Notes: generated by a model from the sequence alone, not told the origin. DNA of 64,000 nt from an uncultured Bacilli bacterium (GCA_947591495.1 CANQDG010000006.1:375-64374); one strand, 5' to 3'; shown: positions 29,002 to 59,046, counted from the first letter of the stretch. A program made the numbers and translations.

Positions 29002-31254
29002 ATGTCTAAACATGAAGAAACTTTAACGATAAATGAAAATATAGATAATAATCTCATTGAACATGAAGAAAAAGCCAGTTCTAGCTTTGCTTTAGATGGT
29101 GCTAAAAAGAAAATAAATGTTCTTTCTTTAATTTTTGAAAGAATTTTACCCATTCTTTTAATAGTAGTGTTAGGTGTTAGACTATTTAGTTATCAAACGC
29201 AAATTGGTCAATATGTTGGTCTTGCTTCAACGCCTTTTTCCCCGTTTAAAACAATTATAACTTTAATTGCAATTTGGTTACAATATACTTGTTTGTTAAT
29301 TGTGATTTTAAAAGGCTTTTTTAACTTTAAATTAATTATTAATTTAAGTAGATTTATTACAATTCCAGTTTTTATTTTAAATGCTATTATGCTACCTGCC
29401 ATAATGACTTTATTTGTTGGCGATAGTAAAGCATCCCTTTTACTAATTTGTTATATTTTAGAAATTGTAATAGGAATCATTTTAGGCATTTATAATATTG
29501 TTATTAATATTAAAGTAAAAACTAATTATAAAGAAATTTTAGCAATGTTTGGCATTTTCCTTTTAATGCTTATTGCTTCGATGCCATCATATTTTTTACA
29601 AATTGTCATTGGTGATGGTAAACGTGATATGATTGTTAAAGATTTAACGCCATATCATCGTATCTTTATTTATTTAGCAATCATTATTCCAACTTGTTTA
29701 TATTTTGCTTTGCGAAATCAAAAAGAAGAAGTTATTCGTTACTTTTTAATATATATATCAGTAGCGACAATGATTGTCTTTTTAGTTAATTTTAATTATA
29801 CTAACTTTAAAGAACCTTGGACTTGGCCTTTTCATCTTTGTAATACCGCCATGTTTATCGTTCCTTTATGTTTGATTTTTAAACTTAAACGTTTGTTCTA
29901 TTTTACTTATTTTATTAATGTCTTTGGGGCTTTAATTGCGATGTTAATGCCTAACTATGATGTTGGAACCAATATTACAAGTATGCGAATTTTTAACTTT
30001 TGGTATAATCATTGGATAGCTTTCTTTATGCCTATTCTACTAGTTGCTTTAAAACAATTTAAGCGTCCAACGATTAAACAATTCTATTGGTCAATGGTTT
30101 GGTTTTTTGGTTATTTTGTTTTAGTATTATTCTTAAATGTTTATTTTACTGCTATTGGTCATAGCGTTGATTACTTCTTTATTAACACTAATTATGTAGC
30201 TGACAAACTCGGTAATTGGGCTAATAATATCTTTAATTTATCAACTAGTTTTACAGTAAATGGTAAATTATTAGTTTTCCATCCGTTATATCAATTCTTG
30301 TTCTTCCTTGGTTATGTTCTTTTAGGACTTGCGGTATGGTTTGTTTATGCGGAATGTTTTAGAATAGCAGATGATCACTTTTTATTACATACAAAACTTA
30401 AAAAAATTAGACAAGATAAACTTGCAATGGCTTCAGTGCCTAGCAAAGTTAGGAGGGCTGAATTCATGAAGGAACAACAAACAAGAGAAGCAAAATTAGA
30501 ATTAATGCACTTCTCTAAAAAATATGCAACCTCGAAAGTTTATGCCGTAGAAGACGCTAATTTAGTTGTAAATGGCGGTGAAATCTTTGGTTTCTTAGGG
30601 CCAAATGGAGCTGGTAAATCAACGATTATTAAAAGCATCGTTGGTATTCAACCAATTACGGATGGTCATATTGAAGTATGTGGTTATGATATTAGTAAAA
30701 CGCCAGTAGAGGCAAAATATAACATTGGTTATGTTCCTGACCATTATGCTTTATATGAAAAATTAACAGGTCGTGAATATATTAATTATATTGCGGACAT
30801 TTATGAAGTTTCGCAAGAAGATCGGGAAGAACGAATTAATAAATATGTTAAATTGTTTGAACTTGAAGCCTCGATTGATAGTCAAATTAAGACTTATTCA
30901 CATGGTATGAAACAAAAAATTACCATTATGTCAGCTTTAGTTCATAATCCTAAAGTTTGGATTTTAGATGAACCATTAACTGGTCTTGATCCTAATAGTA
31001 TTTATCAAGTAAAAGAATGTATGAGGCAACATGCGGCAGCTGGTAATATTGTTTTCTTTAGTTCGCACTTAATTGATATTGTGGAAAAACTATGTGAAAG
31101 AATTGCCATTATTAAACATGGAAAAATCCAATGTGTTAAATCGGTTGAAGAAATCGAAGCATCAGGAATAACCTTAGAACAATTCTATTTAAATACCATA
31201 GGCAATAATGAGGATTCATATGATAATGCTACTGATGTACAAACAAATAACTAA
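29002..31254 (+). CDS. Fusion: multi-pass YwaF/TIGR02206-like membrane domain + ABC ATPase
   Basis: WPFHLCN and FWYNHW in the membrane part. GPNGAGKS, YSHGMKQK, LDEP and SSH in the C-terminal NBD. Confidence 0.85.
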   Translation: MSKHEETLTINENIDNNLIEHEEKASSSFALDGAKKKINVLSLIFERILPILLIVVLGVRLFSYQTQIGQYVGLASTPFSPFKTIITLIAIWLQYTCLLIVILKGFFNFKLIINLSRFITIPVFILNAIMLPAIMTLFVGDSKASLLLICYILEIVIGIILGIYNIVINIKVKTNYKEILAMFGIFLLMLIASMPSYFLQIVIGDGKRDMIVKDLTPYHRIFIYLAIIIPTCLYFALRNQKEEVIRYFLIYISVATMIVFLVNFNYTNFKEPWTWPFHLCNTAMFIVPLCLIFKLKRLFYFTYFINVFGALIAMLMPNYDVGTNITSMRIFNFWYNHWIAFFMPILLVALKQFKRPTIKQFYWSMVWFFGYFVLVLFLNVYFTAIGHSVDYFFINTNYVADKLGNWANNIFNLSTSFTVNGKLLVFHPLYQFLFFLGYVLLGLAVWFVYAECFRIADDHFLLHTKLKKIRQDKLAMASVPSKVRRAEFMKEQQTREAKLELMHFSKKYATSKVYAVEDANLVVNGGEIFGFLGPNGAGKSTIIKSIVGIQPITDGHIEVCGYDISKTPVEAKYNIGYVPDHYALYEKLTGREYINYIADIYEVSQEDREERINKYVKLFELEASIDSQIKTYSHGMKQKITIMSALVHNPKVWILDEPLTGLDPNSIYQVKECMRQHAAAGNIVFFSSHLIDIVEKLCERIAIIKHGKIQCVKSVEEIEASGITLEQFYLNTIGNNEDSYDNATDVQTNN

Positions 31255-31284
31255 CCTCCTACATTTCAAAGGGGGTGAAGAATA

Positions 31285-33141
31285 ATGCTTATTATCCTTT
31301 TCTTATTAATTGTTTTTTCTAAATGTGGTAACAAACAAATTAATCATATTTTGCCCGAAAATGTTAATAGTTCTAATAATAAAGTAAAAGTTCAAAAGCC
31401 GAAGAATAACACTTCTAAAAAGTCTACGAAAGAAGAAAATAAAAAGAAGGAAACAAAAAAGGTTAAAAAAACTACCAAGACCAATCAATTAAAAACGTTA
31501 GTTGTAATGCAATTAAAAGATAAGATTGACTTTAGTTTTGCGAAAAATAAAAAACAACTTCTCCGTAAAATCGTTTTTAGTATTTTAAAATTTACAGTTG
31601 TTTTTGTTATAGCATTTGTTATTTTATATTTATCAATTTATTTAGGTTTGTTTTTCAATAGCGATTTCCCCATTGTTATGGTAGTCGTTGTGACAATATC
31701 TTTATTGCTATCGCTTATTTCTTGTACTTATGAATTAACCACTAATTTATTTTTTGCCGAAGATAATCGCGTTTTAATTACTCTTCCGGTTAACGCTAAT
31801 AAAATTTTTATTTCCCGTATTATTGTTTTTTATATATATGAATTAAAGAAAGCATTAAGTTTCTTAATTCCGATTATTCTTTCTTGTGTTACCCTTTTGG
31901 TATATCGTGGACTTGGTAATTTATGGCTATTTTTATGGATCATTATTCCGTTATTCTTTATCTTAATGTTACCAGTATTAATTGGATCATTATTATCAAT
32001 TCTTGCAATGTATATTAGAAGGTTTTTAAAAAAAGTTCCTATTATTCAAATCATTTTATTTTTAGCTATTTTAGTCGGTGTAGTTGCTTTAGTTGTTTAT
32101 TTAATTAATTTGATACCTGATAATATAAGCCTTATTAATCAGTGGCCTACGATAAGTAAAAATATTAGAAGTTTCTTTATTATGGTTCGTAGTAAACTTA
32201 ATATTATGGCTCAACTAGTTTATATTTTAATTGGTGAATATAGTCATAAAGGACTTTATCTCATTAGTGGTATGACATTAGTTAAATTATTGGTTTTAAT
32301 CGCAATATGTGCTGTGTTGATTTTATTAGTTTATTTTATTTCACGACCAATTTATTTTGGTATGATGTCTAAGAATTTTGAAATTAATAAACGGATTGGT
32401 AATGATAAGCCTAATAAAAGGAAAAATAAATATATAACCTTTGTTAATAAAGAATTTAAAATTAATTTAAGAACCATTAGCATTTCCATTAATTATTTAA
32501 TGGTTTACATAATTGTTCCAATTATGATTTTGTTTTTAAATAAAATGTATAAGGCCATGGAAACAAGTGTGCTTGGTGATGAATTAATTTATACGTTTAA
32601 TATTTTATTAATATGTTTACCACTTCTTGCTTCAAATGGCTTAGTTGCCACTTATTACAGCCGGGAAGGACGAGCAGGTTATATTAAAAAAACTAAACCT
32701 ATTAATGCGGTTTATCCCTTATTTGTAAAAATTATCTTTAATATGATATTTTCTCTTCCATCCGTTTTTGTTACATGTTTTGTTTTTGGTTATCAAAAAG
32801 AATTTACAATTCTTAATAGTTTTATTTTAAGTATGGCGATTTTATTTTTACATTATGGTCATATGATATATAGTGCAACGCTTGATATTATGAATCCTCA
32901 AAATGAACAGTATGCAACAACAGGTGATAATATTGATAATCCTAATGAAAATAAATCGACCATCTTCGCATTTATTATTTCGGCTATTTATACGATCATA
33001 GCGTATAAATTATTATCTGAAACGATGGCTACTGGAATTGTTGTTGGTTTAATTAAAATGCTTCTAATTAGTGCGGCCTTTTTCGCATCGACGCTCTTTA
33101 TGTTTATCAAACGAATTAAAGCATTTTATTATGAAATATAG
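31285..33141 (+). CDS. Large ABC-2-like exporter permease
   Basis: More than 10 TM helices, with LITLPV, KEFK and SREG motifs. Paralogous to 54268..55932. Confidence 0.8.
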   Translation: MLIILFLLIVFSKCGNKQINHILPENVNSSNNKVKVQKPKNNTSKKSTKEENKKKETKKVKKTTKTNQLKTLVVMQLKDKIDFSFAKNKKQLLRKIVFSILKFTVVFVIAFVILYLSIYLGLFFNSDFPIVMVVVVTISLLLSLISCTYELTTNLFFAEDNRVLITLPVNANKIFISRIIVFYIYELKKALSFLIPIILSCVTLLVYRGLGNLWLFLWIIIPLFFILMLPVLIGSLLSILAMYIRRFLKKVPIIQIILFLAILVGVVALVVYLINLIPDNISLINQWPTISKNIRSFFIMVRSKLNIMAQLVYILIGEYSHKGLYLISGMTLVKLLVLIAICAVLILLVYFISRPIYFGMMSKNFEINKRIGNDKPNKRKNKYITFVNKEFKINLRTISISINYLMVYIIVPIMILFLNKMYKAMETSVLGDELIYTFNILLICLPLLASNGLVATYYSREGRAGYIKKTKPINAVYPLFVKIIFNMIFSLPSVFVTCFVFGYQKEFTILNSFILSMAILFLHYGHMIYSATLDIMNPQNEQYATTGDNIDNPNENKSTIFAFIISAIYTIIAYKLLSETMATGIVVGLIKMLLISAAFFASTLFMFIKRIKAFYYEI

Positions 33142-33151
33142 AGGTGATTAA

Positions 33152-33610
33152 ATGAAAAAATCAGTTATTATTACGATTGCGGTAGTTTATATTTTTGCAA
33201 TTGTTGTTGTAGGTTTTATCGGAATTAAAATCAAGGCTTATAATACGCCAGAATTTGTTACAGATATTACTTGTGTATCGGATAATTTTCATAAGTATGA
33301 TCCTAATAATCCTGTTCACAAAAAAGAAATGGAAAAAACTAAGAACCTGATAGGTTATATTGAAGAAGAATTTAAAGAAGGATTAAAAATCACAATTAAT
33401 TGTCAAGTTACACCTGATAATGCTACTAAAAAAGCTTTAACCTTTTCAGTTGATGAAAATCCCGCTGCTTATAAACTTACACCAACATCAGATGGCAGTG
33501 CTACGATTGAATTCTTTGTGGGGACTGAAGTTATTGTTACTATTAAGTCAACCGATATCAAAGGATATTCAATCAAAATAAAGGTGACTGCTTTTGAACG
33601 TAATTGGTAA
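33152..33610 (+). CDS. N-terminally anchored Ig-like (Big_2-type) protein
   Basis: N-terminal TM helix, then VTDITC and CQVTPDNATKKALTFS. Confidence 0.6.
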   Translation: MKKSVIITIAVVYIFAIVVVGFIGIKIKAYNTPEFVTDITCVSDNFHKYDPNNPVHKKEMEKTKNLIGYIEEEFKEGLKITINCQVTPDNATKKALTFSVDENPAAYKLTPTSDGSATIEFFVGTEVIVTIKSTDIKGYSIKIKVTAFERNW

Positions 33611-33644
33611 AAAGAAAAAAGAAATAAAAAGAAAGGAAAAAAAT

Positions 33645-35909
33645 ATGACAAAAAAATTTAGTTTATTGTTAGTTTTATGTACTTTACTATTAACTCTTGT
33701 TGCATGTACTAGTAAAGTAACAGTTACATTTGATACGGCTGGTGGTTCACAAATTGCTAGCGTACAAATTGATGCAGGTGGAAAAATCCAATTGCCTGCA
33801 AACCCTACGAAAGAAGGATATACATTTGTAGGCTGGTTTGTAGAAGGAGAGCCATTTGATGGCAGTCAAAAAATCGATAACAACATAACACTTGTTGCTC
33901 ATTGGAAAAAGACTAATCCTAAAACTTTAACAGTTGTATTCATGGTTGATGGTCAAAAATATGATGAAAAAACTTGCCTTGAAGAAGAACTTTTAACGGA
34001 TCTTCCAAAAAATCCATCAAAAGAAAATTCTCGTTTTGTAGGTTGGTTTGTAGATGATAATACACAATTTGATTTTACTAAAACACCACTTACCGAAGAT
34101 TTAATCGTTAATGCTCATTTTGATGTAACATCAAGAGTTATTGTATATGCGGTTGCATTAGCTGATGATTTTGTTGAGTTTAATAATAATCGCGCAACTA
34201 AGACAGAAAAAAATACTGAATTTGCTGATTTAACGCAAAGTTATGTTGTTGGTGATGATAACCCTTGGAAAGTTGAACCACATATGTCTTTCAGACTTGA
34301 AGATATTGCTACAGGTCATAGCGAATCAACAATCGTTGATGAATGGGAATACACGATTCGAGTATACCATTACAATGGTTCTGATTATGAATTATTAGAA
34401 ACAACAACTGATTTAGTTGACAAAATTGATCCAAAACTTTGCACAATTGATTTTGCTGAAAAAGCTGTTGGTGAAACCTTTAAAATTGAAGTTGTTCCAA
34501 CAGGATTAACTGAAAAACAATTAACTAATGTTCAAAATTATACAATGGTTTTTGAAAACTTTGTAGTTGTTGATGGTTATAATGTTTATGAAGCTAAAGA
34601 ACTTGCTTATGTTGAATATCGTACAATTAATGATAAAGATTGTGATACAGCTTGGGATGCATTTAAAGATGCTAATGGCTTTGATAAAGATTATCATCCT
34701 GCTAATGTAATTTTACATACTAATATTGAAATTACTGCCAGTGATGTTCCTAGTATTTTCTTCTATACCCAAGATGAAATTAATTCATTTGGTGATAGTG
34801 TTAAAAATAAAGAAAATGCAGTTGGTTCAATGAAAGACTGGTATGATTTATATATGCGTGATTTAGGTGAAAACGAAAACTTTGCTCTTCTTGGAAATTA
34901 CTATACTCTTTCAACCGAACACTTAAGAGAAGTAGTTGTTGATACAGATAATGAAGAAACACCTACAGGTGATGTTAACTTAATATCTCATGCTACACTT
35001 ATTAAAATTAGAGGTGCAGCTACTGCCACTTCAAAAATGGCTAATTTACATATTATTGGTAATGCTCCACGTACAGATAATGAAGTTAAATCTGGTGGCC
35101 AAATTCTTGTAAAGGTTGAAGGATCTAATTTTACAGCATACAATAACATTACGATTTGTTCATTTATCACTTATATGCCAAATAGAACTGATTGTCAATT
35201 CTTAATTGAAAAATGTAAAGGTTATGAAAACTTTAACAGCTTAATATACAACTGGGGTTCTGCTAATTTAATAATTAAAGATTCAGAATTCATCGGTGCT
35301 GGTGGACCAGTTGTTATTCAAGACCATGTTCGTGATGGTGATTATGATAAAGATTCAGATGTAAATGGTTTCCCTGCCAAAGCAAAAGTTATCAATTCTA
35401 AATTAGAATCTTATGTAACAGGCGAAGAAGGTTGGTTTACTTTAGTAGGCGCAAGTGCCTTAGTACCACTAGTTAAAAATTTAAATGTAGCATTTGTTGC
35501 TAATGGCCGTTCATTCTTGAAAAATAGTGCATCTGGTGCAACCTTTATGAATTTAATATTTGTAAACAAATCAGGTTCAACTGAAGGCTTAACTAATGAA
35601 AAAATAAAAGCAAGTTTCCAATTTGATGAACTTCCAGCCTTTGATTATGGTGCATTTGACGGAAGTGATCCTGTTTTAAAAAATATGTTAGCTGAACAAT
35701 ATAAGACTAATCATGCTTTCCAAACTACCGGTGGCGGAATGGGATATGTTGGTCTAGATGATCGAGGTGAATCTACTATTAAAGCACCTAATAATCAAAT
35801 GGAATATTTATTAAAATTATTCCAAGGCGATTACCTATGCATCTATGCTCAAAATGGTATGTCTTTTGGTCTACAATTATTTAATGCAGGCGAAACTTAC
35901 GAAATATAA
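33645..35909 (+). CDS. Lipoprotein with two InlB B-repeat (Flg_new)-like repeats and a large uncharacterised beta-rich domain
   Basis: Lipobox LVAC. Repeats PTKEGYTFVGWF and PSKENSRFVGWF. Start at 33645 after an AAGGA RBS. Confidence 0.8.
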   Translation: MTKKFSLLLVLCTLLLTLVACTSKVTVTFDTAGGSQIASVQIDAGGKIQLPANPTKEGYTFVGWFVEGEPFDGSQKIDNNITLVAHWKKTNPKTLTVVFMVDGQKYDEKTCLEEELLTDLPKNPSKENSRFVGWFVDDNTQFDFTKTPLTEDLIVNAHFDVTSRVIVYAVALADDFVEFNNNRATKTEKNTEFADLTQSYVVGDDNPWKVEPHMSFRLEDIATGHSESTIVDEWEYTIRVYHYNGSDYELLETTTDLVDKIDPKLCTIDFAEKAVGETFKIEVVPTGLTEKQLTNVQNYTMVFENFVVVDGYNVYEAKELAYVEYRTINDKDCDTAWDAFKDANGFDKDYHPANVILHTNIEITASDVPSIFFYTQDEINSFGDSVKNKENAVGSMKDWYDLYMRDLGENENFALLGNYYTLSTEHLREVVVDTDNEETPTGDVNLISHATLIKIRGAATATSKMANLHIIGNAPRTDNEVKSGGQILVKVEGSNFTAYNNITICSFITYMPNRTDCQFLIEKCKGYENFNSLIYNWGSANLIIKDSEFIGAGGPVVIQDHVRDGDYDKDSDVNGFPAKAKVINSKLESYVTGEEGWFTLVGASALVPLVKNLNVAFVANGRSFLKNSASGATFMNLIFVNKSGSTEGLTNEKIKASFQFDELPAFDYGAFDGSDPVLKNMLAEQYKTNHAFQTTGGGMGYVGLDDRGESTIKAPNNQMEYLLKLFQGDYLCIYAQNGMSFGLQLFNAGETYEI

Positions 35910-35951: not shown

Positions 35952-35991
35952 AAAAGGCAATTCATTTTAAATTAATGGATTGCCTTTTTTT
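35952..35991 (+). terminator. Terminator of ABC operon 1
   Basis: AAAAGGCAATTCATT/AATGGATTGCCTTTTTT. Confidence 0.7.
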
Positions 35992-36068
35992 ATTGACTTA
36001 GAGGTTAAAAAAATTCTACTTATTTGGTTAAAACTATTGACAAATAATAATAAAGTGGTATAATATAA

Positions 36069-36095
36069 TTAGCACTCAAAGATTGTGAGTGCTAA
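36069..36095 (+). promoter_or_regulatory. CIRCE element (HrcA operator)
   Basis: Perfect TTAGCACTC-N9-GAGTGCTAA between a TTGACA/TATAAT promoter and the htpG RBS. Confidence 0.95.
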
Positions 36096-36106
36096 GGAGT
36101 GATAAC

Positions 36107-38053
36107 ATGAGTGAAATTAAAGAATTTAAAACCGAATCAAAAAGATTACTAGATTTAATGATTCATTCAATCTATACTAATCAAGAAATATTTTTAAGAG
36201 AATTATTATCAAATGCTTCCGATGCAATTGATAAATATCATTATTTATCATTAACTGACGAAAAACTTCCTAAAAGAAATGATTATGAAATTCACATTAG
36301 TATAGACAAAAAAGAACGTACTCTTACTATTAGCGATAATGGTATTGGTATGACTTATGAGGAAATCGATGATAATCTAGGAACAATTGCTAAATCAGGA
36401 ACCCTTGCTTTTGCAAAAAAATTAGAAGAAGCCCAAAAAGAAGGTGGCGAAAATATTGAAACTATTGGTCAATTTGGTGTTGGCTTCTATTCAGCCTTTA
36501 TTGTAGCTAAAAAGGTCGTTGTTGATACTAAATCACCATATAGTGAAAAAGCTTATCGTTTCACATCTACAGGTGAAGATACATACGAGATTGAAGAAAG
36601 TCAAAAAGTTACTACTGGTACAGAAATTACCCTTTATTTAAAAGAAGATACTAAAGATGAAGAAGATAAAGTAGTAAATGATTATGAACAATTCTTAGAT
36701 GAATATACGATTCAATATTTAGTTAAGAAATATTCCGATTATATTAGATACCCAATTACGATGTATCTTACAAAAGAAGAACCTAAACTTGATGAACAAG
36801 GCAAAGAAATTGAAAATGAATATGAAGAAGTAAGAACTCTTACAACTTTAAATTCAATGATTCCGATTTGGAAAAAAAGTAAAAATGAAGTAACTGATGA
36901 AGCCTTAAATGATTTCTACATGCAAAAGTTTTATGATTTTGAAAAACCAATGCTTCATTTAATGTTTAATGTTGAAGGAAATATCAATTATAGTACATTA
37001 CTATTTATTCCTAATGTTCCACCAAGAAATTTACATTCAATCGATTATGAAAAGGGTTTGCAACTATATTCTAAGGGTGTCTTCATTATGGATAAATGCA
37101 AAGAATTAATCCCTGATTATTTAAGATTTGTCAAGGGAATTGTTGATTCTAATGATTTATCACTTAATATAAGTAGAGAAATGCTTCAACAAAATCGTGT
37201 TCTTCAATTAATGCAAAAGAACATCGAAAAAAAGATTTTGAATTATCTTGCAACTATTCAAAAAGATAATTTTGATAAATACTTAGAATTCTATAAAAAC
37301 TATGGTATTAATTTAAAATTTGGGGCATATGAAAATTATGGTTCCAAAAAAGAAATGCTACAAGATTTATTAATTTACGAAAGTCTTAATGCGAATAAGA
37401 TGATATCATTTAAAGAATATGTTGAACAAATGAAAGAGGGCCAAAAAGATATTTATTATGCTTCTGGCAAAAATAAAGAAGAAGTATTAGCAATGCCCCA
37501 AATGGATATTGTTAAAAAATATGGCTATGATGTTCTAATCTTAAAAGATGATGTTGACGAGTTCTTATTAAAAATCTTAAATAAATATAATGATCATGAA
37601 TTTAAATCAATCAATCAAACTTCTTTAGATGATCTTACAACTGAAGAAGAAAAAGAAAAGCTAGAAACCCAAGAAAAAGATCATAAAGAATTACTTGATG
37701 CCCTTAAAGATGCACTTAAAGATAATGTCAAGGATGTTGTTTTATCAAAACGTTTAGTAGATTCACCCGTTTGTTTAGTATCAGGTGATGGCGTATCATT
37801 TGAAATGGAAAAAGTTATTGATGCTATGCCTACTAATGATAAAATAAAAGCGGAAAGAATTTTAGAAATCAATCCTAATCATGAATTATTCCAATCTTTA
37901 GATCAAGTATTTAAAGAAACCCCTGAAGAAATTAAAGATTATGCTAATTTATTATATAATCAAGCATTATTAATGGAAGGATTTAAACCAACTAATAGTG
38001 TAGAATTTTCCAATTTAATGTGCAAGTTGATGATTAAAAGCATTAAGAAATAA
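36107..38053 (+). CDS. htpG: Chaperone Hsp90
   Basis: Motifs IFLRELLSNASDA, DNGIGM, IGQFGVGFYSAF and LNISREMLQ. Start MSEIKEF. Confidence 0.97.
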   Translation: MSEIKEFKTESKRLLDLMIHSIYTNQEIFLRELLSNASDAIDKYHYLSLTDEKLPKRNDYEIHISIDKKERTLTISDNGIGMTYEEIDDNLGTIAKSGTLAFAKKLEEAQKEGGENIETIGQFGVGFYSAFIVAKKVVVDTKSPYSEKAYRFTSTGEDTYEIEESQKVTTGTEITLYLKEDTKDEEDKVVNDYEQFLDEYTIQYLVKKYSDYIRYPITMYLTKEEPKLDEQGKEIENEYEEVRTLTTLNSMIPIWKKSKNEVTDEALNDFYMQKFYDFEKPMLHLMFNVEGNINYSTLLFIPNVPPRNLHSIDYEKGLQLYSKGVFIMDKCKELIPDYLRFVKGIVDSNDLSLNISREMLQQNRVLQLMQKNIEKKILNYLATIQKDNFDKYLEFYKNYGINLKFGAYENYGSKKEMLQDLLIYESLNANKMISFKEYVEQMKEGQKDIYYASGKNKEEVLAMPQMDIVKKYGYDVLILKDDVDEFLLKILNKYNDHEFKSINQTSLDDLTTEEEKEKLETQEKDHKELLDALKDALKDNVKDVVLSKRLVDSPVCLVSGDGVSFEMEKVIDAMPTNDKIKAERILEINPNHELFQSLDQVFKETPEEIKDYANLLYNQALLMEGFKPTNSVEFSNLMCKLMIKSIKK

Positions 38054-47087: not shown

Positions 47088-47103
47088 AGAGAAAGATAAA
47101 AAA

Positions 47104-51152: not shown

Positions 51153-51153
51153 C

Positions 51154-51518: not shown

Positions 51519-51587
51519 AAATAAAGAAAAAATATTGAAATTAGTATAATTTTATTAAACTTTAATATTTTATAAGAGGTGATAATA

Positions 51588-52211
51588 GTGATAGAAAGAC
51601 TAAAAAATAAATTTGGTGTTAATGAACCAATTTTTACAAGTGAAATTTTAGAAGAAATGAAAGAGTATTCTAGAGCTAGAGTATTTCAACTTTTAAAAAA
51701 AGCTGAAGAAGAAGAAAAGATCATTAAGTTTGATAATGGCATTTATTATATTCCAACACAAACTCGTTATGGATTATCACTTATATCAGTTGAGCAAGTA
51801 GTACAAAAAAAATTTATCGCTAATAATGATTTGGTTTATGGTATTTATGGTGGATTACAATTAAAACAAAATTTTATGCTTACTATGCAAGTAGCATCTA
51901 CTATTGAAGTTATAACAAACAATGAAACGATGTTTGTGAGAGAAATAGAACTTAAAAATCGTAAAATTATTCTTCGTAAATCACGTTTACCGATAACAAA
52001 AGAAAATGTTAATGCTTATACCATTCTTGAATTATTTAGTAATATTGATATTAAAGAATATTTAAATAATTCTATGGTTCAAAACGAAGTATTTAAGTTT
52101 ATCAAAGAAAATGAAATTAAAAGTAAAGATGTATATAAATTAGTAGGTTTTTTCCCTGCTAAAACAACTAGAAATATAATGGAGAGTGGAATTATAAATG
52201 AATTTGCATAA
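51588..52211 (+). CDS. AbiEi-like antitoxin (type IV TA), N-terminal wHTH
   Basis: Motifs EPIFTSEI, GIYYIP and LTMQV..IEVITN. Overlaps the abiEii start. Confidence 0.75.
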   Translation: MIERLKNKFGVNEPIFTSEILEEMKEYSRARVFQLLKKAEEEEKIIKFDNGIYYIPTQTRYGLSLISVEQVVQKKFIANNDLVYGIYGGLQLKQNFMLTMQVASTIEVITNNETMFVREIELKNRKIILRKSRLPITKENVNAYTILELFSNIDIKEYLNNSMVQNEVFKFIKENEIKSKDVYKLVGFFPAKTTRNIMESGIINEFA

Positions 52212-53106
52212 GAATCCTAAATTATTTTATGACACTTTGTTAATAGTTGCTGATAGGTTACATACATCAGTTGCTATTATTGAAAAAGACTACTATGTAA
52301 CACTTTTTTTAGAATCGCTTGTTAAAAAAGTACCTAACTTAATTTTTAAAGGTGGAACTTCACTTTCAAAGTGCTATAAAATCATTAATCGTTTTTCTGA
52401 AGATATTGATTTAAGTCTTGATATCAAAAACTTAACTTCAACAAACAAACGAAATCTTAAAAAAGCAATCATTGAGGTTTGCAATGAACTTGAATTTGAA
52501 TTAATAAATTTAGAAAATATTTATAGTCGTAGAGATTATAATCGTTATGAAATTAAGTATCCCATTCTTTTTAATGATGATGGAATAAAACCTTATCTAT
52601 TTATTGAAACAGCATTTATGGTAAAGGTTTTTCCTTATGAAATTAAAAATGTCACATCAATGATTTATGATTTTTTTAAAGAAATTGGTGATTTAAAGGC
52701 CATTGAAGAATTTGAAATGAAACCATTTGAAATTCGTGTGCAGTCAGCAAATAGAACATTAGTTGACAAAGTATTTGCTCTTTGTGATTATAAAATATCG
52801 AACAATATTAAAGATCATTCAAGACATATTTACGATATTTATCAACTTTTGAAAATAACTTTTCTTGATGATACTTTCAAAGTTTTAGTAAACGAAGTTA
52901 GAGAAGAACGTAAGTTACATAAAAATTGTTATTCTGCTCAAGATCAATATGATATTCCAACAATTTTAAGACAAATTATTGATGAAAAAATTTTCTATAA
53001 TGATTATATTACTGTAACACAAAGAGTTTTATTTGATGATGTAACTTATGAAACTTCAATAAAAGCTTTGGAACAAATTATTGTAAGTGGCGCATTTAAA
53101 AAATAG
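52198..53106 (+). CDS. AbiEii/AbiGii nucleotidyltransferase toxin
   Basis: Motifs IEKDYYVT, FKGGTSLSK, RFSEDIDL, RTLVDK and SRHIYDI. Confidence 0.92.
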   Translation: MNLHKNPKLFYDTLLIVADRLHTSVAIIEKDYYVTLFLESLVKKVPNLIFKGGTSLSKCYKIINRFSEDIDLSLDIKNLTSTNKRNLKKAIIEVCNELEFELINLENIYSRRDYNRYEIKYPILFNDDGIKPYLFIETAFMVKVFPYEIKNVTSMIYDFFKEIGDLKAIEEFEMKPFEIRVQSANRTLVDKVFALCDYKISNNIKDHSRHIYDIYQLLKITFLDDTFKVLVNEVREERKLHKNCYSAQDQYDIPTILRQIIDEKIFYNDYITVTQRVLFDDVTYETSIKALEQIIVSGAFKK

Positions 53107-53132
53107 ATATAATATTATTTTTAGACGAATCG

Positions 53133-53164
53133 AATGCACTTAAAATTTTTAGGTGCATTTTTTT
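53133..53164 (+). terminator. Terminator after abiEii
   Basis: AATGCACTTAAA/TTTAGGTGCATTTTTT. Confidence 0.65.
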
Positions 53165-53482
53165 ATTTGATATAGCAAAAGCAAAATAGTGATTGTAAAA
53201 TTATAAACTATCATATGTATGATGCATAAAATTAAGCTAAATTATTTATTAAATTATTATATTTAGTTGTTAATAAAAGCTATGATATTTTTTCTTAAAA
53301 TAGTTTATATATCCTTTGAAAGAGGGCTTTTTTGTAACTTTTAGCAACATTTCCATAATCTTTCAGATTAAGAATGTCGTAAAAAGCACTTTTTTATTGA
53401 AAAATATCGATTTATATAGTATAATTAATCAAAAAGCACATAAAAAATAATGATTGTTTGAAAAAAACAAATTGGAGGAATT

Positions 53483-54271
53483 ATGAGCGACAAGAAAATC
53501 GTGTTGAGTGTAGAAAATTTATTTAAAAAATATCATGAAAAAGATGATTATGCTGTGGAAGATATTAATTTTTCTTGCTACTCGGAAGAAATTGTTGGTA
53601 TTATTGGCCAAAATGGTGCGGGTAAATCAACCATTATTAAATGTATAACCGGTATTCATCCAATCACAGAAGGAACGGTAAAAATATGTGATTATGATAT
53701 TAAAGATGATATGTTAAAAGCTAAACAAAATATAGGTTATGCATCAGATGATCATGCCGTGTTTGAAAAAATGACGGGTTTAGAATATTTGAACTTTTTA
53801 GCTGATGTATATGGCGTAGATACTGATACTAGAAAAGCAAGAATGGACCAATTTCAAACATACTTAAATTTAGGATTAGCTATTGAAAGGCAAATTAGTT
53901 CATATTCTCATGGAATGCATCAAAAAATTTCGATTATGGGAGCATTGATTCATCAACCTGAATTATTGGTTTTAGATGAACCATTAACTGGACTTGATCC
54001 ACAAACGGTTTTTGCCGTAAAAGAATTTCTTTTATTACATAAAAAAAATGGCAAAACCGTTTTATTTTCATCGCATAACTTAAATATTGTTGAACAAATT
54101 TGTGATCGTTATATTGTTATTAATCATGGCAAGTTAATTGAAGAAAAAACGCTTGTTCAGTTTAAAAAAGAAAATCCTAACCAAACCTTAGAAGAATACT
54201 TCCTTAATCTGGTTATTGAAGATAACAAAAAACGTATGATTGATTCTAAGCAAGATGGTGAAACAAAATGA
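53483..54271 (+). CDS. ABC transporter ATP-binding protein
   Basis: Motifs GQNGAGKS, YSHGMHQK, LDEPLTGLDP and SSH. Promoter TTGAAA-N17-TATAAT at 53397-53425. Confidence 0.93.
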   Translation: MSDKKIVLSVENLFKKYHEKDDYAVEDINFSCYSEEIVGIIGQNGAGKSTIIKCITGIHPITEGTVKICDYDIKDDMLKAKQNIGYASDDHAVFEKMTGLEYLNFLADVYGVDTDTRKARMDQFQTYLNLGLAIERQISSYSHGMHQKISIMGALIHQPELLVLDEPLTGLDPQTVFAVKEFLLLHKKNGKTVLFSSHNLNIVEQICDRYIVINHGKLIEEKTLVQFKKENPNQTLEEYFLNLVIEDNKKRMIDSKQDGETK

Positions 54272-55932
54272 ATCAATTAGCTATTTTAACCAAAAGAGAA
54301 TTCAAGCAACAATTTGAATTGTATCAAATTAAAAACAAAAAATATCATAATTTTTTGGGTAATATCTTATCAATTATTATTGTTCTTTGTTTGCTTGCGG
54401 CCTTCACTTTAACTTTTTATGCTTTTGTTAAAGGTTATCAAGATATCAAAATGAATGGCGTGTCAACCTTAAAAGAAAGACAACATGAAGTTTTAACGAT
54501 TGCCTATCTTATTGTAATTGTTATAGGAGTAGTCAATGGAATGACTAAAATTACCAAATCTTTTATGCTTGATGAAAGTATGAAAATCTTAGTTAAACTT
54601 CCTGTTTCTGCTCAAACAATTTTCTGGTCTAAATTTATTGTTTTATATATTCATGAAATTCTTTTTTCCCTTTTAACTATTTTACCGATTAATATAACTT
54701 TTGCTATAGTTGTTCATCCAAATTTTTGGTTTTGGATTATGACAATTCTTGTTTGTTTATTATTACCTTTAGTTGAATTAATTTTTGCGTCAATCCTTGC
54801 GATGCCATTTGCTCGAATTGTTAATTTCTTAAAATCAAGATATTTATTAACAGCTATTTTATTTATTTTAGGCATTTCTTTGTTTTTTGTTGTATATATT
54901 AAATTTGTTTCTGTTTTTAAATTATGGTTTGAAACAGGTAGTATTGAATCAATTTTTAATCAAAAAACCATTGATCTAATTAGCAATATTGCTAAATATG
55001 CATATCCAGCTAATTTATTTGCCCATACTGCTTTAATGGATAATGGGATTATGCCACTATTTTTAATTATCCTTCTTTCAGCAGTTTTCTTTGGGATTAC
55101 TTATTTAATTATTAAGTTTTTATTTACTAACGTTTTAAAATATGGAACAAAACCTCTAAGAGGGATTAAGAAAAAAACTAAAATAAAACAAAGTTCGCCT
55201 TTTTTTGCTTTATTAAAAAAAGAATTTGTTACGATTTGGCGTTCACCCAATTACTTATTTCAATATTTTGTAATGGCCTTTATTATGCCAATTATGACAT
55301 TTAGTTGTTTACTTATTTTCACCGAATTTATTGAAAGATTAATTGGTGATAATTGGAATGTTGAATTATGCGTCTTTGTTATTTCAATGTTTAGTGTTTT
55401 AACGAATGTTTTTTGTGCAACAAATATATCAAGAGAAGGTAAAATGTTTAATTTAAGTAAAAGATTACCTTATTCATATCAAAAACAATTATTTATTAAA
55501 GTATGTTTTTGTTGCATAATTTCTTATATATCAGTTTTTATTAGTCTTTTAGTTATTAGTATTAGCGGTTATATCAATCTTTTAGAATTCTTTTTAATTT
55601 TAATAGCAATGTTCCTACTTGTAACAGGAGAAGTTTTAATTGCAACAAGAAAAGATTTAAACCATCCATCATTTGATCAATTAGAAAATGGCGAGGTTAA
55701 TAAAGAAAATACAACTGTTTCATTTATTATTGGAACCGGTTTATTATTTAGTTTATTAATTGGCGCAAGTAGTTTTATAATTTCTTTTCTTGTTAATGGC
55801 AAAAAGATGCAAAGTCATTCACCCCTTGTTGCCCTTTTATGTGTCCTTGCTATTTGTCTTGTTTATTTTGGTATAGCTTGTTTTTATTTCTTTAAAGGAT
55901 TAATAAAAAAATATCAAGAAACTGTTTATTAA
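54268..55932 (+). CDS. Large ABC-2-like exporter permease
   Basis: More than 10 TM helices, with LVKLPV, KKEF, SREG and DLNHP. ATGA overlap with the ATPase. Confidence 0.8.
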   Translation: MNQLAILTKREFKQQFELYQIKNKKYHNFLGNILSIIIVLCLLAAFTLTFYAFVKGYQDIKMNGVSTLKERQHEVLTIAYLIVIVIGVVNGMTKITKSFMLDESMKILVKLPVSAQTIFWSKFIVLYIHEILFSLLTILPINITFAIVVHPNFWFWIMTILVCLLLPLVELIFASILAMPFARIVNFLKSRYLLTAILFILGISLFFVVYIKFVSVFKLWFETGSIESIFNQKTIDLISNIAKYAYPANLFAHTALMDNGIMPLFLIILLSAVFFGITYLIIKFLFTNVLKYGTKPLRGIKKKTKIKQSSPFFALLKKEFVTIWRSPNYLFQYFVMAFIMPIMTFSCLLIFTEFIERLIGDNWNVELCVFVISMFSVLTNVFCATNISREGKMFNLSKRLPYSYQKQLFIKVCFCCIISYISVFISLLVISISGYINLLEFFLILIAMFLLVTGEVLIATRKDLNHPSFDQLENGEVNKENTTVSFIIGTGLLFSLLIGASSFIISFLVNGKKMQSHSPLVALLCVLAICLVYFGIACFYFFKGLIKKYQETVY

Positions 55933-55944
55933 GGAGGAAAACCA

Positions 55945-58900
55945 ATGAAAAAGAAAATTATGGCCTTAATGCTTGTTATTCCAATTATTTTAACTTTTGC
56001 AATTTTCTCTTTTTCTAAAACAGCTGCCGTATTGGCCGATATTCCTGTTCACGATATTGCGATTGAAAAAGGGGAAAATGGTTTTTTAGATATCGAATTA
56101 ACTAGTAATGAAAGCCATTATTTAAAATATGAAGTGACTCCATTAGAAGCCAAAAATCGCGATGTTAAAATTACATGCACACCAAAAGGTCTTGTAATTG
56201 ATGAAAAAACAGGCCTAATTAGCGCAAGTGATGTTGGTAAATATGTAATAACAGTAGAAACGATTGATGGAGGATTTCGTGATAGTTTGACTGTTAATGT
56301 TACAAGTAAAAAAGTTATTGATTTTGAGTTAGGTAATTTTCTTGATAAAAATAAAACACCCCTAAATAAAAATAAAATTGAAATGGGTGATCAGTTTTAT
56401 ATCTCAACCACAACAAGACCTGATTTACCTTCAATCATTAATTGGGAATCAAGTGATTCATCAATTATTCGAGTAGATCCATATACAGGATTGTGTACGG
56501 CTAGAAAAAACGGAACAGCTACAATTACAGCAACTTTAGAAGATGGTATTCATGGACCAATTAAGAAAAGTAAAACGATTGATGTCTTTTTACATGAAAC
56601 AGATGCTCATTTTAACTTAGAACAATCAGTTATTTGGACTATCAATAATACGATTACTATGAATATCGTTTTAGATAAAAAGAAAATAGTTGAAACTGGT
56701 CATGCGGATATTTTAACACTTGATCCAAATGAAATATTAAAAATCGAAGAAACATCAGCGTTACCATATAAAGCCGAAATTAAACTAATAAGTGATAATG
56801 AAGAAACTGTTGATTTAGCATTGCAATTATCTTTCGAACAAGCAACAATTTATAACTTTAATATTCAACTTAATCATAGTGATTATAATCAATATCAAAA
56901 TACTTTAGAAGTTCATAAATTAACCGAAGAAGAAGTTCAATTTACTATTCAAGGAAATCCCTATATTATGTTAGGAGCAACCGGTCGTTTTTATTTAGAT
57001 TCGGATGTCTTAGAAGATTTTGATGGTGAAATAACTTGGGAAGCTAATTCTGATAGTGTTGAGTTAACAACTTTTGGTAAAGCAGTTGATGTTGAAGGAA
57101 AAAAAGCTGATAATAGTGTTGATCTTACATGTAATGTAGAGTTTTTTGGTAAAAATATTACGAAGACAATCACAATTGAAGTTTTAGAAGTGCCTACTGC
57201 GATCACAATTAAAGAAGGAACTTTTGAATATGGCACCTTAAAAGAAAAAACTTATAAATTTGGTGAATTTAAAGTACAAGGTAATGAATATGTTGCGGAT
57301 AGTTTTGTGCCAACCATTATGTTTAGTGGTATTAGCACTGATACATCTGATTATGAATTAACGTGTGATCGGGAAGATTTAGTTAAAATTGAAGACAATA
57401 AAATTTATGTTCTTAATAGTGGCATAGTTACGATTACTGCGACTTCGATTAGTGCTAAAAAATTAGGTGTTACCCGCAGTGATAGCTTTACTTTTGAAGT
57501 AGTCAAAGATAGTGTTAATATTTATTCTTATCAAGACTTGATGAAAGCTACTACAGATGGTCGTTATGATCTTATTTTACAAGTAACAATTGGTAGCAGT
57601 ATTGATGAAGAAAGATTAAATGCTAAAGGTCGCACCAATCAATTTGATGAATTTGGTGACGAAGTTGAGGAAATGCCAACCACGTGGGATTGGACATATT
57701 ATAATAATAAAACCGGTAACCAACCAAATATTAAATATGCAGTTAAATTTTCGAAAAACCTTTATGGCAATGGCTTTACTCTTAATGCTCATAACCTTAC
57801 ATATCGTGATGATGCAACCGGTAAAATAACTTCTGAGTCTATTTTTAGAGGTCCACTTAATTTTGCTAGTTTTAATGGAGCAGCATCCGTTAAAGGTCAA
57901 GATAATATTGTTTTCTTAGTTGATCAAGATGTAACAATTAATAATGTTATTTTAACAGCTTGTAATGAATTAAGCGATATTATTAGTTCCCAAACTCAAA
58001 AGGCAAGTCCCAAAACAGTCGATTTGAATATGTTAAATCATGTAGGAACAACCGTTGAAGTAATGGGTGATAATGTTAATATCATTAATTCACGGCTAAT
58101 GAATGGTCGTACTGTTTTAAGAATTTTTGGTACTAGTAATCCTGATGATGTCATTCATGTAAATGTAGCAAGTAGTGTTATTTCTTTTGGTAGAGAATTC
58201 TTATTAAAGATGGGATCGAACAAATATGTTGTCGGTGATGTCTTAGTTGAAGGATCAGTTGAAAACGATAATTTAGCATTTGAACAAGCTAGTCCAAATC
58301 TTAAAATAAAAAATCAAGATTTTATTTATAATGTTGAAGATAAATTTAATGGTAATTATGAAAATAATCAAGATTATTTAGATTTAGTTAAAACTTTTGT
58401 AACGTTGAAAAATTGTGTATTTGCAACCTCAGGTATTTTTAGTATTGGTATTGAATCACATTTTAGTGGCCCTGCCTTAGATGGTTATGGCCTATCAGGT
58501 GGAAATTATAAAGATCAATTTGTATCATCTGGTTGGGAAAATATGGCAGCTACAAGTTATCCTGCTCAACTTATTTTAGAAGATGAAGTTAAAATTTACG
58601 ATTGGAAAAACTTGAATAATGTTGATAGTTCTACCCTTGTTGAAGGAGCAGGTGGCATCACAATTATTGATTTTAATATAGCTGATTTAGTAAAGGCCGT
58701 CGCAAAAAATGATCCAACATTGCAATCAATTATCACCAAAATTGGAAATGATGAATATGTTCATGGTGGTATTGCTTTCTATGGTGGTGGAAAAAATTAT
58801 AGTTCAATTATTCGAAAAGATTTCAAAACGGAAGATTTTAAAGAATATTTCATTGGTTTTAACGATATAAAATATGAAGCTGAAGATTCAAAATTACTTA

Positions 58901-59046
58901 CCTTTGTTGGTAAAAATTTACCATATGCATCAGGTAGAGAAAAATTTGCCTTCTTAATGTATTCTTCTGAAAGTAGTTTTAATTATGAAAAGCAAGTCCA
59001 AGATTTACAATCAGCTGATGCTTATAGTTGGATTCCTAAAGCTTAA
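55945..59046 (+). CDS. Membrane-anchored surface protein with Big_2 Ig-like domains and a large beta-rich C-terminal domain
   Basis: N-terminal TM helix, WESSDSSIIRVD..G..TARKNGTATITAT, and LYGNGFTL. Confidence 0.78.
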   Translation: MKKKIMALMLVIPIILTFAIFSFSKTAAVLADIPVHDIAIEKGENGFLDIELTSNESHYLKYEVTPLEAKNRDVKITCTPKGLVIDEKTGLISASDVGKYVITVETIDGGFRDSLTVNVTSKKVIDFELGNFLDKNKTPLNKNKIEMGDQFYISTTTRPDLPSIINWESSDSSIIRVDPYTGLCTARKNGTATITATLEDGIHGPIKKSKTIDVFLHETDAHFNLEQSVIWTINNTITMNIVLDKKKIVETGHADILTLDPNEILKIEETSALPYKAEIKLISDNEETVDLALQLSFEQATIYNFNIQLNHSDYNQYQNTLEVHKLTEEEVQFTIQGNPYIMLGATGRFYLDSDVLEDFDGEITWEANSDSVELTTFGKAVDVEGKKADNSVDLTCNVEFFGKNITKTITIEVLEVPTAITIKEGTFEYGTLKEKTYKFGEFKVQGNEYVADSFVPTIMFSGISTDTSDYELTCDREDLVKIEDNKIYVLNSGIVTITATSISAKKLGVTRSDSFTFEVVKDSVNIYSYQDLMKATTDGRYDLILQVTIGSSIDEERLNAKGRTNQFDEFGDEVEEMPTTWDWTYYNNKTGNQPNIKYAVKFSKNLYGNGFTLNAHNLTYRDDATGKITSESIFRGPLNFASFNGAASVKGQDNIVFLVDQDVTINNVILTACNELSDIISSQTQKASPKTVDLNMLNHVGTTVEVMGDNVNIINSRLMNGRTVLRIFGTSNPDDVIHVNVASSVISFGREFLLKMGSNKYVVGDVLVEGSVENDNLAFEQASPNLKIKNQDFIYNVEDKFNGNYENNQDYLDLVKTFVTLKNCVFATSGIFSIGIESHFSGPALDGYGLSGGNYKDQFVSSGWENMAATSYPAQLILEDEVKIYDWKNLNNVDSSTLVEGAGGITIIDFNIADLVKAVAKNDPTLQSIITKIGNDEYVHGGIAFYGGGKNYSSIIRKDFKTEDFKEYFIGFNDIKYEAEDSKLLTFVGKNLPYASGREKFAFLMYSSESSFNYEKQVQDLQSADAYSWIPKA

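Follow-up and report, generated by a model that had tools for sequence, protein, structure and literature searches.

We analysed two loci, 29002-35909 (locus 1) and 53483-59046 (locus 2), in a 64,000-nucleotide (nt) stretch of DNA from an uncultured Bacilli bacterium (GCA_947591495.1 CANQDG010000006.1:375-64374; this whole stretch is called the window, and positions are counted from its first letter). Each locus encodes an ATP-binding cassette (ABC) ATPase, a permease and partner proteins that are predicted to be tethered to the membrane. The G+C content of the window is 29%, and its source genome measures 1.51 Mb and is 95% complete. A preliminary description, made from the sequence alone, had proposed that the loci are paralogous operons for an undescribed surface system in which an ABC-2-type transporter works with a dedicated extracellular partner. 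Our gene calls, which are simple open reading frame (ORF) calls, returned the same ORF positions. Locus 1 consists of four closely spaced genes on the + strand, locus 2 is followed on its 3' side by accessory genes, and the gaps between genes are at most 30 nt in both loci. The genes that concern us are listed below; TM-Ig denotes a transmembrane (TM) segment followed by an immunoglobulin-like (Ig) segment.

29002-31254, + strand: type-1 gene 1, a YwaF/TMEM164-like domain plus an ABC ATPase, 750 amino acids (aa)
31285-33141, + strand: type-1 permease, 618-aa ORF
33152-33610, + strand: type-1 small TM-Ig protein, signal-anchored, 152 aa
33645-35909, + strand: type-1 beta-helix lipoprotein, 754 aa (771 aa when the ORF is read from TTG 33594)
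53483-54271, + strand: type-2 stand-alone ABC ATPase with the YSHGM signature, 262 aa
54268-55932, + strand: type-2 permease, ABC-2-like, predicted 12-TM, 554 aa
55945-59046, + strand: type-2 partner in which the TM-Ig and beta-helix parts are fused, 1033 aa

For the lipoprotein gene we prefer the ATG at 33645 (MTKKFSLLL...LVAC), as had been proposed, to the TTG at 33594, because the closest homologue has 754 aa. Homologues of the type-1 permease have 536-578 aa and are without its Lys-rich, low-complexity N-terminal 60-90 residues (31285-31560); given these shorter homologues, the Lys-rich start may be an extension or a lineage-specific cytoplasmic tail, or the true start may lie further in.

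The two loci are paralogous. The C-terminal half of the 29002-31254 product and the 53483-54271 product share 46% identity over 247 aa (BLASTP, E 3e-73), and both contain the motifs YSHGMxQK and LDEPLTGLDP from which their paralogy had been deduced. ABC_tran (PF00005; cut-off 25) scored 93.6 bits in gene 1 (aa 517-659) and 103.3 bits in the type-2 ATPase, and both possess a Walker A motif (GPNGAGKST/GQNGAGKST), a Walker B motif with the catalytic Glu (ILDEP/VLDEP) and an H-loop (SSH), which places them among the ABC ATPases. The permeases encoded at 31285-33141 and 54268-55932 are 23% identical over 499 aa (BLASTP, E 1e-21), in an alignment that takes in the pairs ATYYSREG/ATNISREG and LDIMNP/KDLNHP, as the preliminary description had it.

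The product of gene 1 is composite, with a multi-pass YwaF/TMEM164-like domain at about aa 30-480 and the ABC ATPase at about aa 490-740. The TMEM164 model of Pfam (PF14808; cut-off 25) scored 73.4 bits over aa 223-415, and 83.1 bits in the search of the genome. Among 50 homologues of this domain, P276, H278, C280 and H337 are kept in 45-48, with C280 and H337 each conserved in 47 and H278 in 45. The domain resembles the ATGY superfamily (AIG1/TMEM164/GPC1/YwaF/YpjA, LhaT) in exceeding the TMEM164 cut-off and in its conserved Cys and His. As far as the accessible text goes, this superfamily, which includes bacterial YwaF, has been described as carrying a nucleophile of variable identity on TM2 together with an invariant TM4 His (bioRxiv 10.1101/2022.07.06.498872, Reed et al.), and the nucleophile (Cys/Ser/Thr)/His dyad, C123/H181 in TMEM164, as serving lipid acyl transfer or hydrolysis (bioRxiv 10.1101/2022.07.06.498872). 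LhaT, a Bacillus lipoprotein N-acetyltransferase, is assigned to the same superfamily (PMC12345273, in the part accessible to us). The C280/H337 pair fits such a dyad, a putative one that is proposed from conservation. Unlike ATGY proteins, the gene 1 domain is fused to an ABC ATPase. This fusion recurs in 1192 clusters at E <= 1e-10, and PF14808 and PF00005 were found together in all 120 of the listed ones; their database names are just 'YwaF family protein' or 'ABC-2 type transport system ATP-binding protein', and the accessible portion of the ATGY-superfamily literature mentions no ABC-ATPase fusion. The host genome contains three further stand-alone YwaF-like genes. In four loci (L111, L112, L114 and L130) the YwaF-like domain and the ATPase are separate neighbouring genes, so that the type-1 fusion occurs in split form too; the TM-Ig protein is longer in L111, L112 and L114 (299-323 aa) and has 152 aa in L130.

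A simple hydropathy scan of the permease gave about 12 hydrophobic segments and no long outside loop. When the N- and C-terminal halves of the permease family alignment (A3) were compared with hhalign, they matched with a probability of 86.3% (E 4.8e-6, 153 columns), and a KKE(F/L) stretch opens each half. The permease is predicted from these features to be an internally duplicated 12-TM protein with two homologous 6-TM halves. In Pfam, the type-2 permease gave a weak match to PF09847 12TM_1 (26.6 bits; cut-off 33.2) and a weak one to ABC2_membrane_4, and the type-1 permease gave no match. Among 33 permease relatives at E <= 0.01, PF16949 was found in 5 and PF09847 in 2, and the window permeases had an Atlas feature score of 0.97-0.98 to clusters bearing PF16949 or PF09847. 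The putative Bacillota permeases of PF16949 (ABC_tran_2) and PF09847 (12TM_1) resemble those of the window, and their ATPases also have the YSHGM signature. Since the window permeases fall below the Pfam cut-offs, we regard them as distant relatives of PF16949/PF09847 and do not call them members; in this form, as duplicated 12-TM permeases of an ABC-2-like group, the earlier assignment to ABC-2-type transporters holds. Pfam detected no FtsX/MacB/LolC-type domain in the window permeases or in the 33 relatives. A profile of the 33 permeases found nothing real among all PDB sequences (the best match was Ninjurin-2, E 0.032), and our literature search on PF16949/PF09847 found no function described and nothing relevant.

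The partner proteins are modular. The protein starting at 33645 has an LVAC lipobox, two Flg_new (InlB B-repeat) domains (E 4e-23), a beta-sandwich region and a right-handed beta-helix that occupies about aa 325-771 of the 771-aa ORF (nt 34566-35909). The 1033-aa protein starts with a signal anchor (aa 5-23), continues with Big_2-type Ig domains (Big_2 E 9.8e-9) and ends in a right-handed beta-helix at about aa 521-1016 (nt 57505-59046). Neither the large proteins nor the 152-aa protein and its fused counterpart gave a significant pairwise match, and family profiles were therefore needed; P0106, a long and distant type-1 relative, likewise gave noise when compared by BLASTP with the window's type-2 protein. 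The hhalign comparison of alignment A1 (27 type-1 sequences) with A2 (23 type-2 sequences) returned a probability of 84.5% (E 7e-6, 220 columns) and aligned the 771-aa protein (residues 317-574) with the 1033-aa protein (residues 512-834). Four reversed-sequence controls gave E 0.47-0.78 at 0.1% probability, those set against this match lying at 0.56-0.78. This alignment reproduced the motif pairs VVDGYNVY/VKDSVNIY, LLGNYYTL/LYGNGFTL and IKDSEFIGAG/LKNCVFATSG, on which the preliminary description had based its large domain shared by the two loci. The claim stands at the level of the profiles, where the alignment is significant, and of the fold; it does not stand for the window pair compared by BLASTP.

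Relatives of the type-1 C-terminal domain numbered 113 in a word-indexed search and 604 clusters at 50% identity in an exhaustive one, and 1543 relatives of the C-terminal part of the 1033-aa protein were found among 8000 candidates scored. Neither domain has a Pfam or NCBIfam model. The polar residues D415, H466, N490, K507, N517 and E612 are invariant in the type-1 family, and Q652, D653, N654, E705, R726, R750, E751, K888 and D894 in the type-2 family. At relaxed thresholds, a weak match to PF13229 Beta_helix appeared in 4 of 27 type-1 members (best E 7e-4) and in none of 23 type-2 members. AlphaFold2 modelled the 771-aa protein with a predicted local distance difference test (pLDDT) of 87.7 and a predicted template modelling score (pTM) of 0.77, and the 1033-aa protein with a pLDDT of 77.4 and a pTM of 0.74. 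With the 771-aa model as query, Foldseek returned no PDB entry at E <= 0.001, beta-helix enzymes appearing only at 7e-3 and weaker. In a VIA-align fold search covering 48,161 chains, the best match of the type-1 domain was the alginate epimerase/lyase 8ja4_A (Z 16.2, root-mean-square deviation (rmsd) 4.0, 237 aligned), with further matches to the phage protein 7chu_A (Z 15.5), polygalacturonase 1bhe_A (Z 14.5), AlgE4 (Z 13.8), L. reuteri SRRP 5nxk (Z 13.4), PfbA 3zpp (Z 11.8), VexL (Z 11.5) and many tailspikes. The type-2 domain matched 6c72_A best (Z 13.2, rmsd 3.1, 216 aligned), with 7y5s_A (Z 12.9), 7chu_A (Z 12.8) and 8ja4_A (Z 12.5) behind it. In these models both partner domains are right-handed parallel beta-helices that start where the profile alignment starts (about 325 and 521), which bears out the earlier suggestion of a beta-helical partner (VIA-align Z 12-16). 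The fold is shared with pectate-lyase-like enzymes and adhesins, such as alginate epimerase/lyase, GH28, tailspikes and the SRRP binding region (Z 12-16, 210-240 aligned); these differ in giving no family-level sequence match and in not being obligately linked to an ABC transporter.

The 152-aa protein begins with MKKSV and has one TM helix (aa 5-23) followed by a probable Big_2-like Ig domain. It has no Pfam match of its own, so that the Ig fold is inferred, and its comparison with the N-terminus of the 1033-aa protein was not significant (BLASTP, E 0.071). That N-terminal part resembles Big_2-type Ig folds (7quz, Z 10.7, aa 33-122). A hidden Markov model (HMM) built from 28 homologues of the 152-aa protein matched 42 of 120 relatives of the 1033-aa protein, falling on Ig repeats and on N-termini, and in several type-2 proteins the match spanned the full length (HMM 1-148, residues 1-129; domain E ~4e-6); it did not match the window's own 1033-aa protein. 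Thus, the shared TM and Ig segment that had been read from the window is found between the families, and in the window pair itself neither BLASTP nor the HMM recovers it. Predicted together with residues 95-618 of the permease, the 152-aa protein gave a complex score of 0.57, and the best of three controls gave 0.00; 116 of 157 solved complexes reached the mark used for this score, as did 2 of 215 mismatched pairs, and scores of 0.60 or less comprised only 18 of the 157 solved complexes, yet both mismatches that passed. The runs agreed in at least 89% of contacts, with a partner pLDDT of at least 71.

We then turned to the linkage of the partner to the transporter in other genomes. Each family profile was searched against 401 genomes sampled from the window's class, and the ORFs in about 20 kb around every true domain match were labelled with purpose-built HMMs. 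For type 1, the full set (YwaF-like domain plus ATPase, permease, ~150-aa TM-Ig protein and beta-helix protein) was present in 27 of 28 neighbourhoods, the 28th being a 184-aa fragment at a contig end. A TM-Ig homologue lies directly 3' of the permease in the same 27/28 proportion and in 23 further loci. Gene order varies, with the partner gene upstream in seven loci (L048-L054), and in L055-L058 the type-1 domain lies within proteins of 1460-1790 aa. Type-2 matches at E <= 1e-30 were found in 35 of 401 genomes; ATPase, permease and partner stand together in 35 of 36 neighbourhoods, and the 36th begins at a contig end. None of these 36 neighbourhoods has a TM-Ig HMM match on a separate gene or a YwaF fusion. 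As an independent set, among 185,579 named species genomes, we confirmed 208 type-2 stretches as tblastn relatives among 265 pattern matches, and kept 80 loci of these 208 relatives, mostly from gut metagenome-assembled genomes (MAGs) named as Clostridia, Christensenella, Anaeroplasma, Acholeplasmatales or Bacilli. The domain was present in 79 of the 80 loci. Four of these have no upstream sequence, and of the 75 that are left 74 are linked to the transporter, 65 with the permease directly upstream and 9 with ATPase and permease 1.2-1.7 kb upstream. The linkage that had been conjectured from the two loci of the window is therefore found across genomes, and the domain does not occur mostly without the transporter. 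The module is widespread in uncultured gut Bacillota.

The search was also reversed, with 40 more neighbourhoods chosen by permease match alone. This set yielded 23 loci (24 cassettes) that are type-1-like with a TM-Ig gene, and one type-2 locus; the next large gene matched the type-1 beta-helix HMM in 13 of the 23 type-1-like loci, and the rest were contig-cut or gave no match. The permease profile matches in 176 of 399 genomes, and the partner-linked permease clades score far above plain ATPase-permease pairs against it; the partner-linked transporters are thus particular clades of the wider PF16949/PF09847 permease group. The YSHGM variant of the signature is present in 91 of 93 partner-linked ATPases and in 10 of 12 ATPases of plain pairs, and marks the whole wider transporter group.

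Other layouts were met in the course of these searches. A third arrangement (L115, L129, L133, L134) opens with a giant protein, continues with ATPase and permease, and ends with a TM-anchored protein (about 590 aa) and a lipoprotein (about 680 aa); the giant protein has 2454-2802 aa in three loci and is truncated to 312 aa in L133 by a contig end. The 579-aa TM-anchored protein of L133 gave the sole cross-match of the beta-helix HMMs, a weak one of the type-2 HMM (2e-4). A genome of about 0.8 Mb carries two type-1 cassettes (L047 4278-12538 and L099 11431-17332) with three and two tandem beta-helix lipoprotein genes, which suggests partner diversification behind a single transporter.

The linkage counts bear on the simplest alternative, that an ordinary efflux or immunity pump is co-transcribed by chance with surface adhesins or glycan-active enzymes. 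Beta-helix adhesins such as SRRP and PfbA do exist, the host genome is rich in large surface proteins, and locus 2 has accessory genes that lack conservation. Linkage of 27/28, 35/36 and 74/75, however, holds across many families of two classes despite changes of gene order, and the neighbours stay the same whether the forms are split or fused. The host genome encodes two permeases of this family and no more; both lie in the window, each with its partner. There is no further copy of either beta-helix domain, hence no orphan of either part. The synteny counts make simple co-location of unrelated genes unlikely, and we consider this account very improbable. They also rule out a chance resemblance between two unrelated operons.

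Partners differ in how they are tethered. A strict lipobox was found in 41 of 45 type-1 partners (the other four being two with FGC/MGC, one fragment and one second ORF); that of the 33645 protein reads LLLTLVAC, and its Cys is invariant in all 27 A1 sequences. Only 3 of 39 type-2 partners have a lipobox, and the other 36 have a signal anchor (MKKK-LIILLLIPF...). Within the type-2 family, the TM-Ig part is a separate gene in L064 and L065 (248-250 aa) and in 8 of the 9 spaced loci of the named-MAG set (404-499 aa), and the beta-helix protein carries a lipobox in 9 of 10 such split loci; in the tenth, L159, which may be a frameshifted fused gene, it has no signal sequence. The Rosetta-stone pattern that had been noted between the two loci, with the domain separate in one and fused in the other, recurs within the type-2 family and is stronger there than the window alone shows. 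One rule holds across all forms: the TM-anchored Ig part is always present, and the beta-helix is in every case predicted to be tethered, through fusion or through a lipid.

LolCDE extracts lipoproteins. In a similar way, the transporter, in type 1 together with its acyltransferase domain, could insert, extract, re-anchor or release the beta-helix protein. Such dedicated handling would suit a separately encoded partner that is a lipoprotein and a type-1 ATPase bearing a domain of a superfamily that is described as including a lipoprotein N-acetyltransferase (PMC12345273, accessible part), and the three other YwaF-like genes of the host genome argue that the fused copy is specialised. Yet the 36 type-2 partners with a plain signal anchor use no lipid and have the same transporter, the FtsX/LolC-type domain is not found in the permeases, and lipoprotein partners occur without a YwaF domain in split type-2 loci and in those of the third arrangement. 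We judge handling of this kind quite unlikely and rank it below the exporter with an outside receiver that is considered below.

The nearest known design is that of NosDFY. It resembles the module in having an ABC-2-type core with a dedicated extracytoplasmic right-handed beta-helix protein, and in both a beta-helix partner is encoded beside an ABC-2-type ATPase and permease. In the accessible text on NosDFY, the periplasmic beta-helix of NosDF2Y2 sits on the ABC-2 core, and ATP binding switches this partner from the lipoprotein NosL to the reductase, altering the binding of the beta-helix rather than moving a solute; a lipoprotein is thus involved there as well (PMC13685413). The module differs from NosDFY in having one 12-TM permease chain in place of two 6-TM NosY, a TM-Ig adaptor, a beta-helix tethered by signal anchor or lipid and, in type 1, the YwaF-like fusion, and in being hosted by gut Bacillota with genomes of 1-2 Mb. 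No nos genes were seen among the window ORFs scanned, a search that did not extend to nosZ in the rest of the genome. Type VII systems (FtsEX with EnvC/PcsB, MacB, LolCDE, YbbAP-TesA) are also like the module in that an ABC motor is coupled to an extracytoplasmic partner, hydrolases among them, according to the accessible parts of two reports (PMC12646458, PMC5985334). We found no characterised system that matches the module in Pfam, NCBIfam, PDB sequences or PADLOC, and no description of the module or of the YSHGM motif in a literature search that left out supplements and covered few subscription journals. The pairing of an ABC motor with its own extracytoplasmic partner is thus known; what is new is this family, with its TM-Ig adaptor, its obligate tethering and the fusion of a YwaF-like domain to the ATPase.

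A defence-system reading was rejected, as PADLOC returned only generic P-loop cross-matches of the ATPases, while the permeases, TM-Ig proteins and partners had no match. A polysaccharide export locus was ruled out as well, there being no biosynthetic genes nearby.

The two loci represent a single conserved and so far uncharacterised envelope module of gut Bacillota. We propose that its four parts form one complex in which an ABC motor is coupled to a tethered beta-helix, and give this reading a probability of roughly 50%. The modules are self-contained, have no adjoining pathway genes, and keep their parts through changes of gene order, through fission and fusion and across two classes, which argues for one complex. 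It would be built from the YSHGM ATPase, the duplicated 12-TM ABC-2-like permease, the signal-anchored Ig protein and the tethered right-handed beta-helix ectodomain. The TM-Ig part may dock on the permease and position the beta-helix over it; the binding and hydrolysis of ATP on the cytoplasmic side would be relayed via the permease to the beta-helix, where the relay would gate its activity or its binding to a partner, as NosF2Y2 does for NosD. Most likely, a glycan would be bound or cleaved by the beta-helix. The YwaF/TMEM164-like domain joined to the type-1 ATPase could contribute a lipid or lipoprotein acyl-transfer step. The preliminary description had suggested that the machine might export, assemble or release lipids or surface proteins; this, like the physical complex itself, is an inference.

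Several observations weigh against this proposal. Direct BLASTP of the 771-aa and 1033-aa proteins gave a best E of 0.028, which is not significant; deeper, domain-only alignments matched more weakly in hhalign (probability 61%, E 7.9e-5, 99 columns); and single HMMs failed to bridge the families, the type-1 HMM having 0 matches in type-2 loci and the type-2 HMM none in 28 type-1 loci. The beta-helix fold is common among enzymes, adhesins and tailspikes, and the fold matches (Z 12-16) are many and tied, so that they name the fold and no specific function. NosD itself (7o0y_A) is among the type-1 fold matches (Z 11.6, rmsd 3.8, 208 aligned), at rank 46, and is not a specific hit. The NosD model of Pfam, PF05048, is absent at E <= 1 from the 27 type-1 and 23 type-2 members, and the host genome has none at E <= 0.01; since this family assignment fails, NosDFY serves as an analogy and the module is not a member of its family. 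Unlike the FtsX/MacB mechanotransmitters, the module permease is predicted to be 12-TM without a large outside domain, and it does not qualify as a type VII system. The predicted permease-TM-Ig complex concerns one pair, without the beta-helix, and lends weak support. The type-2 partner of L156 lacks a transporter within 3.9 kb on its upstream side, and the synteny counts include related genomes, so that they overstate independence. The 12 lowest-scoring permease loci (12/12) are plain ATPase-permease pairs with unrelated neighbours and no TM-Ig or beta-helix match, one of them followed by a gene for a 1037-aa lipoprotein; since such pairs occur without a partner, the transporter core can work alone, which favours an ordinary transport function. 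The ATPases, finally, are nearest to DrrA/GldA-type ABC-2 exporter ATPases, with best NCBIfam matches of 207/190 bits to DrrA and 198/181 bits to GldA, all below cut-off.

The partnerless relatives, the exporter-like ATPases and a fold shared with enzymes of exported polymers together keep a true exporter with an outside receiver as a strong rival. The permease would flip or extrude a lipid, glycolipid, lipid-linked glycan or amphiphile, with the tethered beta-helix as the extracellular enzyme or acceptor and, in type 1, the YwaF-like acyltransferase modifying the same lipid. Among the fold matches are 8ja4, AlgE4 and VexL of ABC-dependent capsule export; the ATGY superfamily is described, in the accessible text, as acting on lipids (bioRxiv 10.1101/2022.07.06.498872); and the ABC-lipid hydrolase complex YbbAP-TesA offers a precedent, as far as the accessible part of that report goes (PMC12646458). 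A scan of the window ORFs, however, found no glycosyltransferase, polymerase or other pathway genes adjoining either locus, a simple hand-over would need neither an obligate TM-Ig adaptor nor constant tethering of the partner, and no substrate can be named. On balance we hold an exporter of this kind to be rather unlikely, while ranking it next after the coupled complex.

If the four parts do form one machine, the module would be a second, far more widespread case in which an extracellular beta-helix is powered or gated by an ABC transporter; to our knowledge, NosDFY is the only case so far. A broader idea, possible but doubtful, is that an ABC-2 motor with a tethered beta-helix is a general and ancient design for ATP-controlled extracellular chemistry, of which NosDFY would be one specialised case and the present modules a large, unrecognised gut-Bacillota branch with an ATP-gated glycan enzyme or adhesin on a TM-Ig adaptor, the type-1 fusion coupling acyl transfer to the ATP cycle. 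Were this true, the ATGY superfamily would gain in the YwaF-ATPase fusion its first member coupled to ATP. Both module types are kept in at least 16 sampled genomes, and a module of 7-10 kb is a large investment for small host genomes. The module may offer a handle on PF16949/12TM_1 ABC systems, on bacterial YwaF proteins and on the control of surface enzymes or adhesins in wall-poor gut Firmicutes.

The other features at the two loci are as follows, the hairpins and the promoter-like site coming from a consensus scan alone.

59064-63443, + strand: accessory giant surface protein, 1459 aa
63445-64000 (window end), + strand: accessory small lipoprotein with lipobox LVGC, 194 aa, ending 29 nt beyond the window
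35952-35988, + strand: terminator-like hairpin closing locus 1, 15-bp stem and T run
53397-53425, + strand: promoter-like site before locus 2, 11/12 matches
53132-53160: terminator-like hairpin 5' of the locus-2 promoter-like site

The 1459-aa protein has an N-terminal signal or TM segment, GGLVG-type repeats and a hydrophobic C-terminal tail. It had been labelled a GLUG protein; its motifs are only GGLVG-like, and Pfam gave no Glug (PF07581) match at E <= 0.01, only a sub-threshold MBG_3. The 194-aa lipoprotein has no family match in Pfam or NCBIfam. Of 36 other type-2 loci, only two (L062 and L063) have a relative of the giant protein after the partner gene. The giant protein and the small lipoprotein, which the preliminary description had counted as additions of locus 2 to the machine, are encoded there and lie outside the module core. 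Just 3' of the window end, on the same strand as locus 2, is a gene for a 1053-aa lipoprotein (L216 972-4133) with InlB B-repeat-like repeats by eye.

Each outer edge of locus 1 (28754-28794 and 35952-35988) has a terminator-like hairpin and a promoter-like site, as consensus pattern matches. Unrelated housekeeping or mobile-type genes lie between the loci: htpG, a Zn peptidase, formate-tetrahydrofolate ligase, a NAGPA-family protein and an AbiEi/AbiEii pair. The htpG gene (36089-38053) is preceded by a perfect sigma-70 consensus at 36037-36064 (TTGACA, 16 nt, TG, TATAAT; 12/12). An AAA_14 and DUF4143 ATPase gene at 39042-40379 (- strand) and a histidine phosphatase gene at 43399-43968 are the sole sizeable minus-strand genes between the loci. 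Three co-directional genes at 44148-49014, encoding proteins of 595 aa and 367 aa (no Pfam match) and a 636-aa protein with a NAGPA phosphodiester glycosidase domain (E 4.7e-30), could form a further surface or glycan locus. A Schlafen AlbA_2 and HATPase_c_4 protein is encoded at 49679-51061. Directly upstream of locus 2, at 51579-53106, the toxin-antitoxin-type pair consists of AbiEi (210 aa, PADLOC E 1.4e-51) and AbiEii (302 aa, E 2.4e-78).

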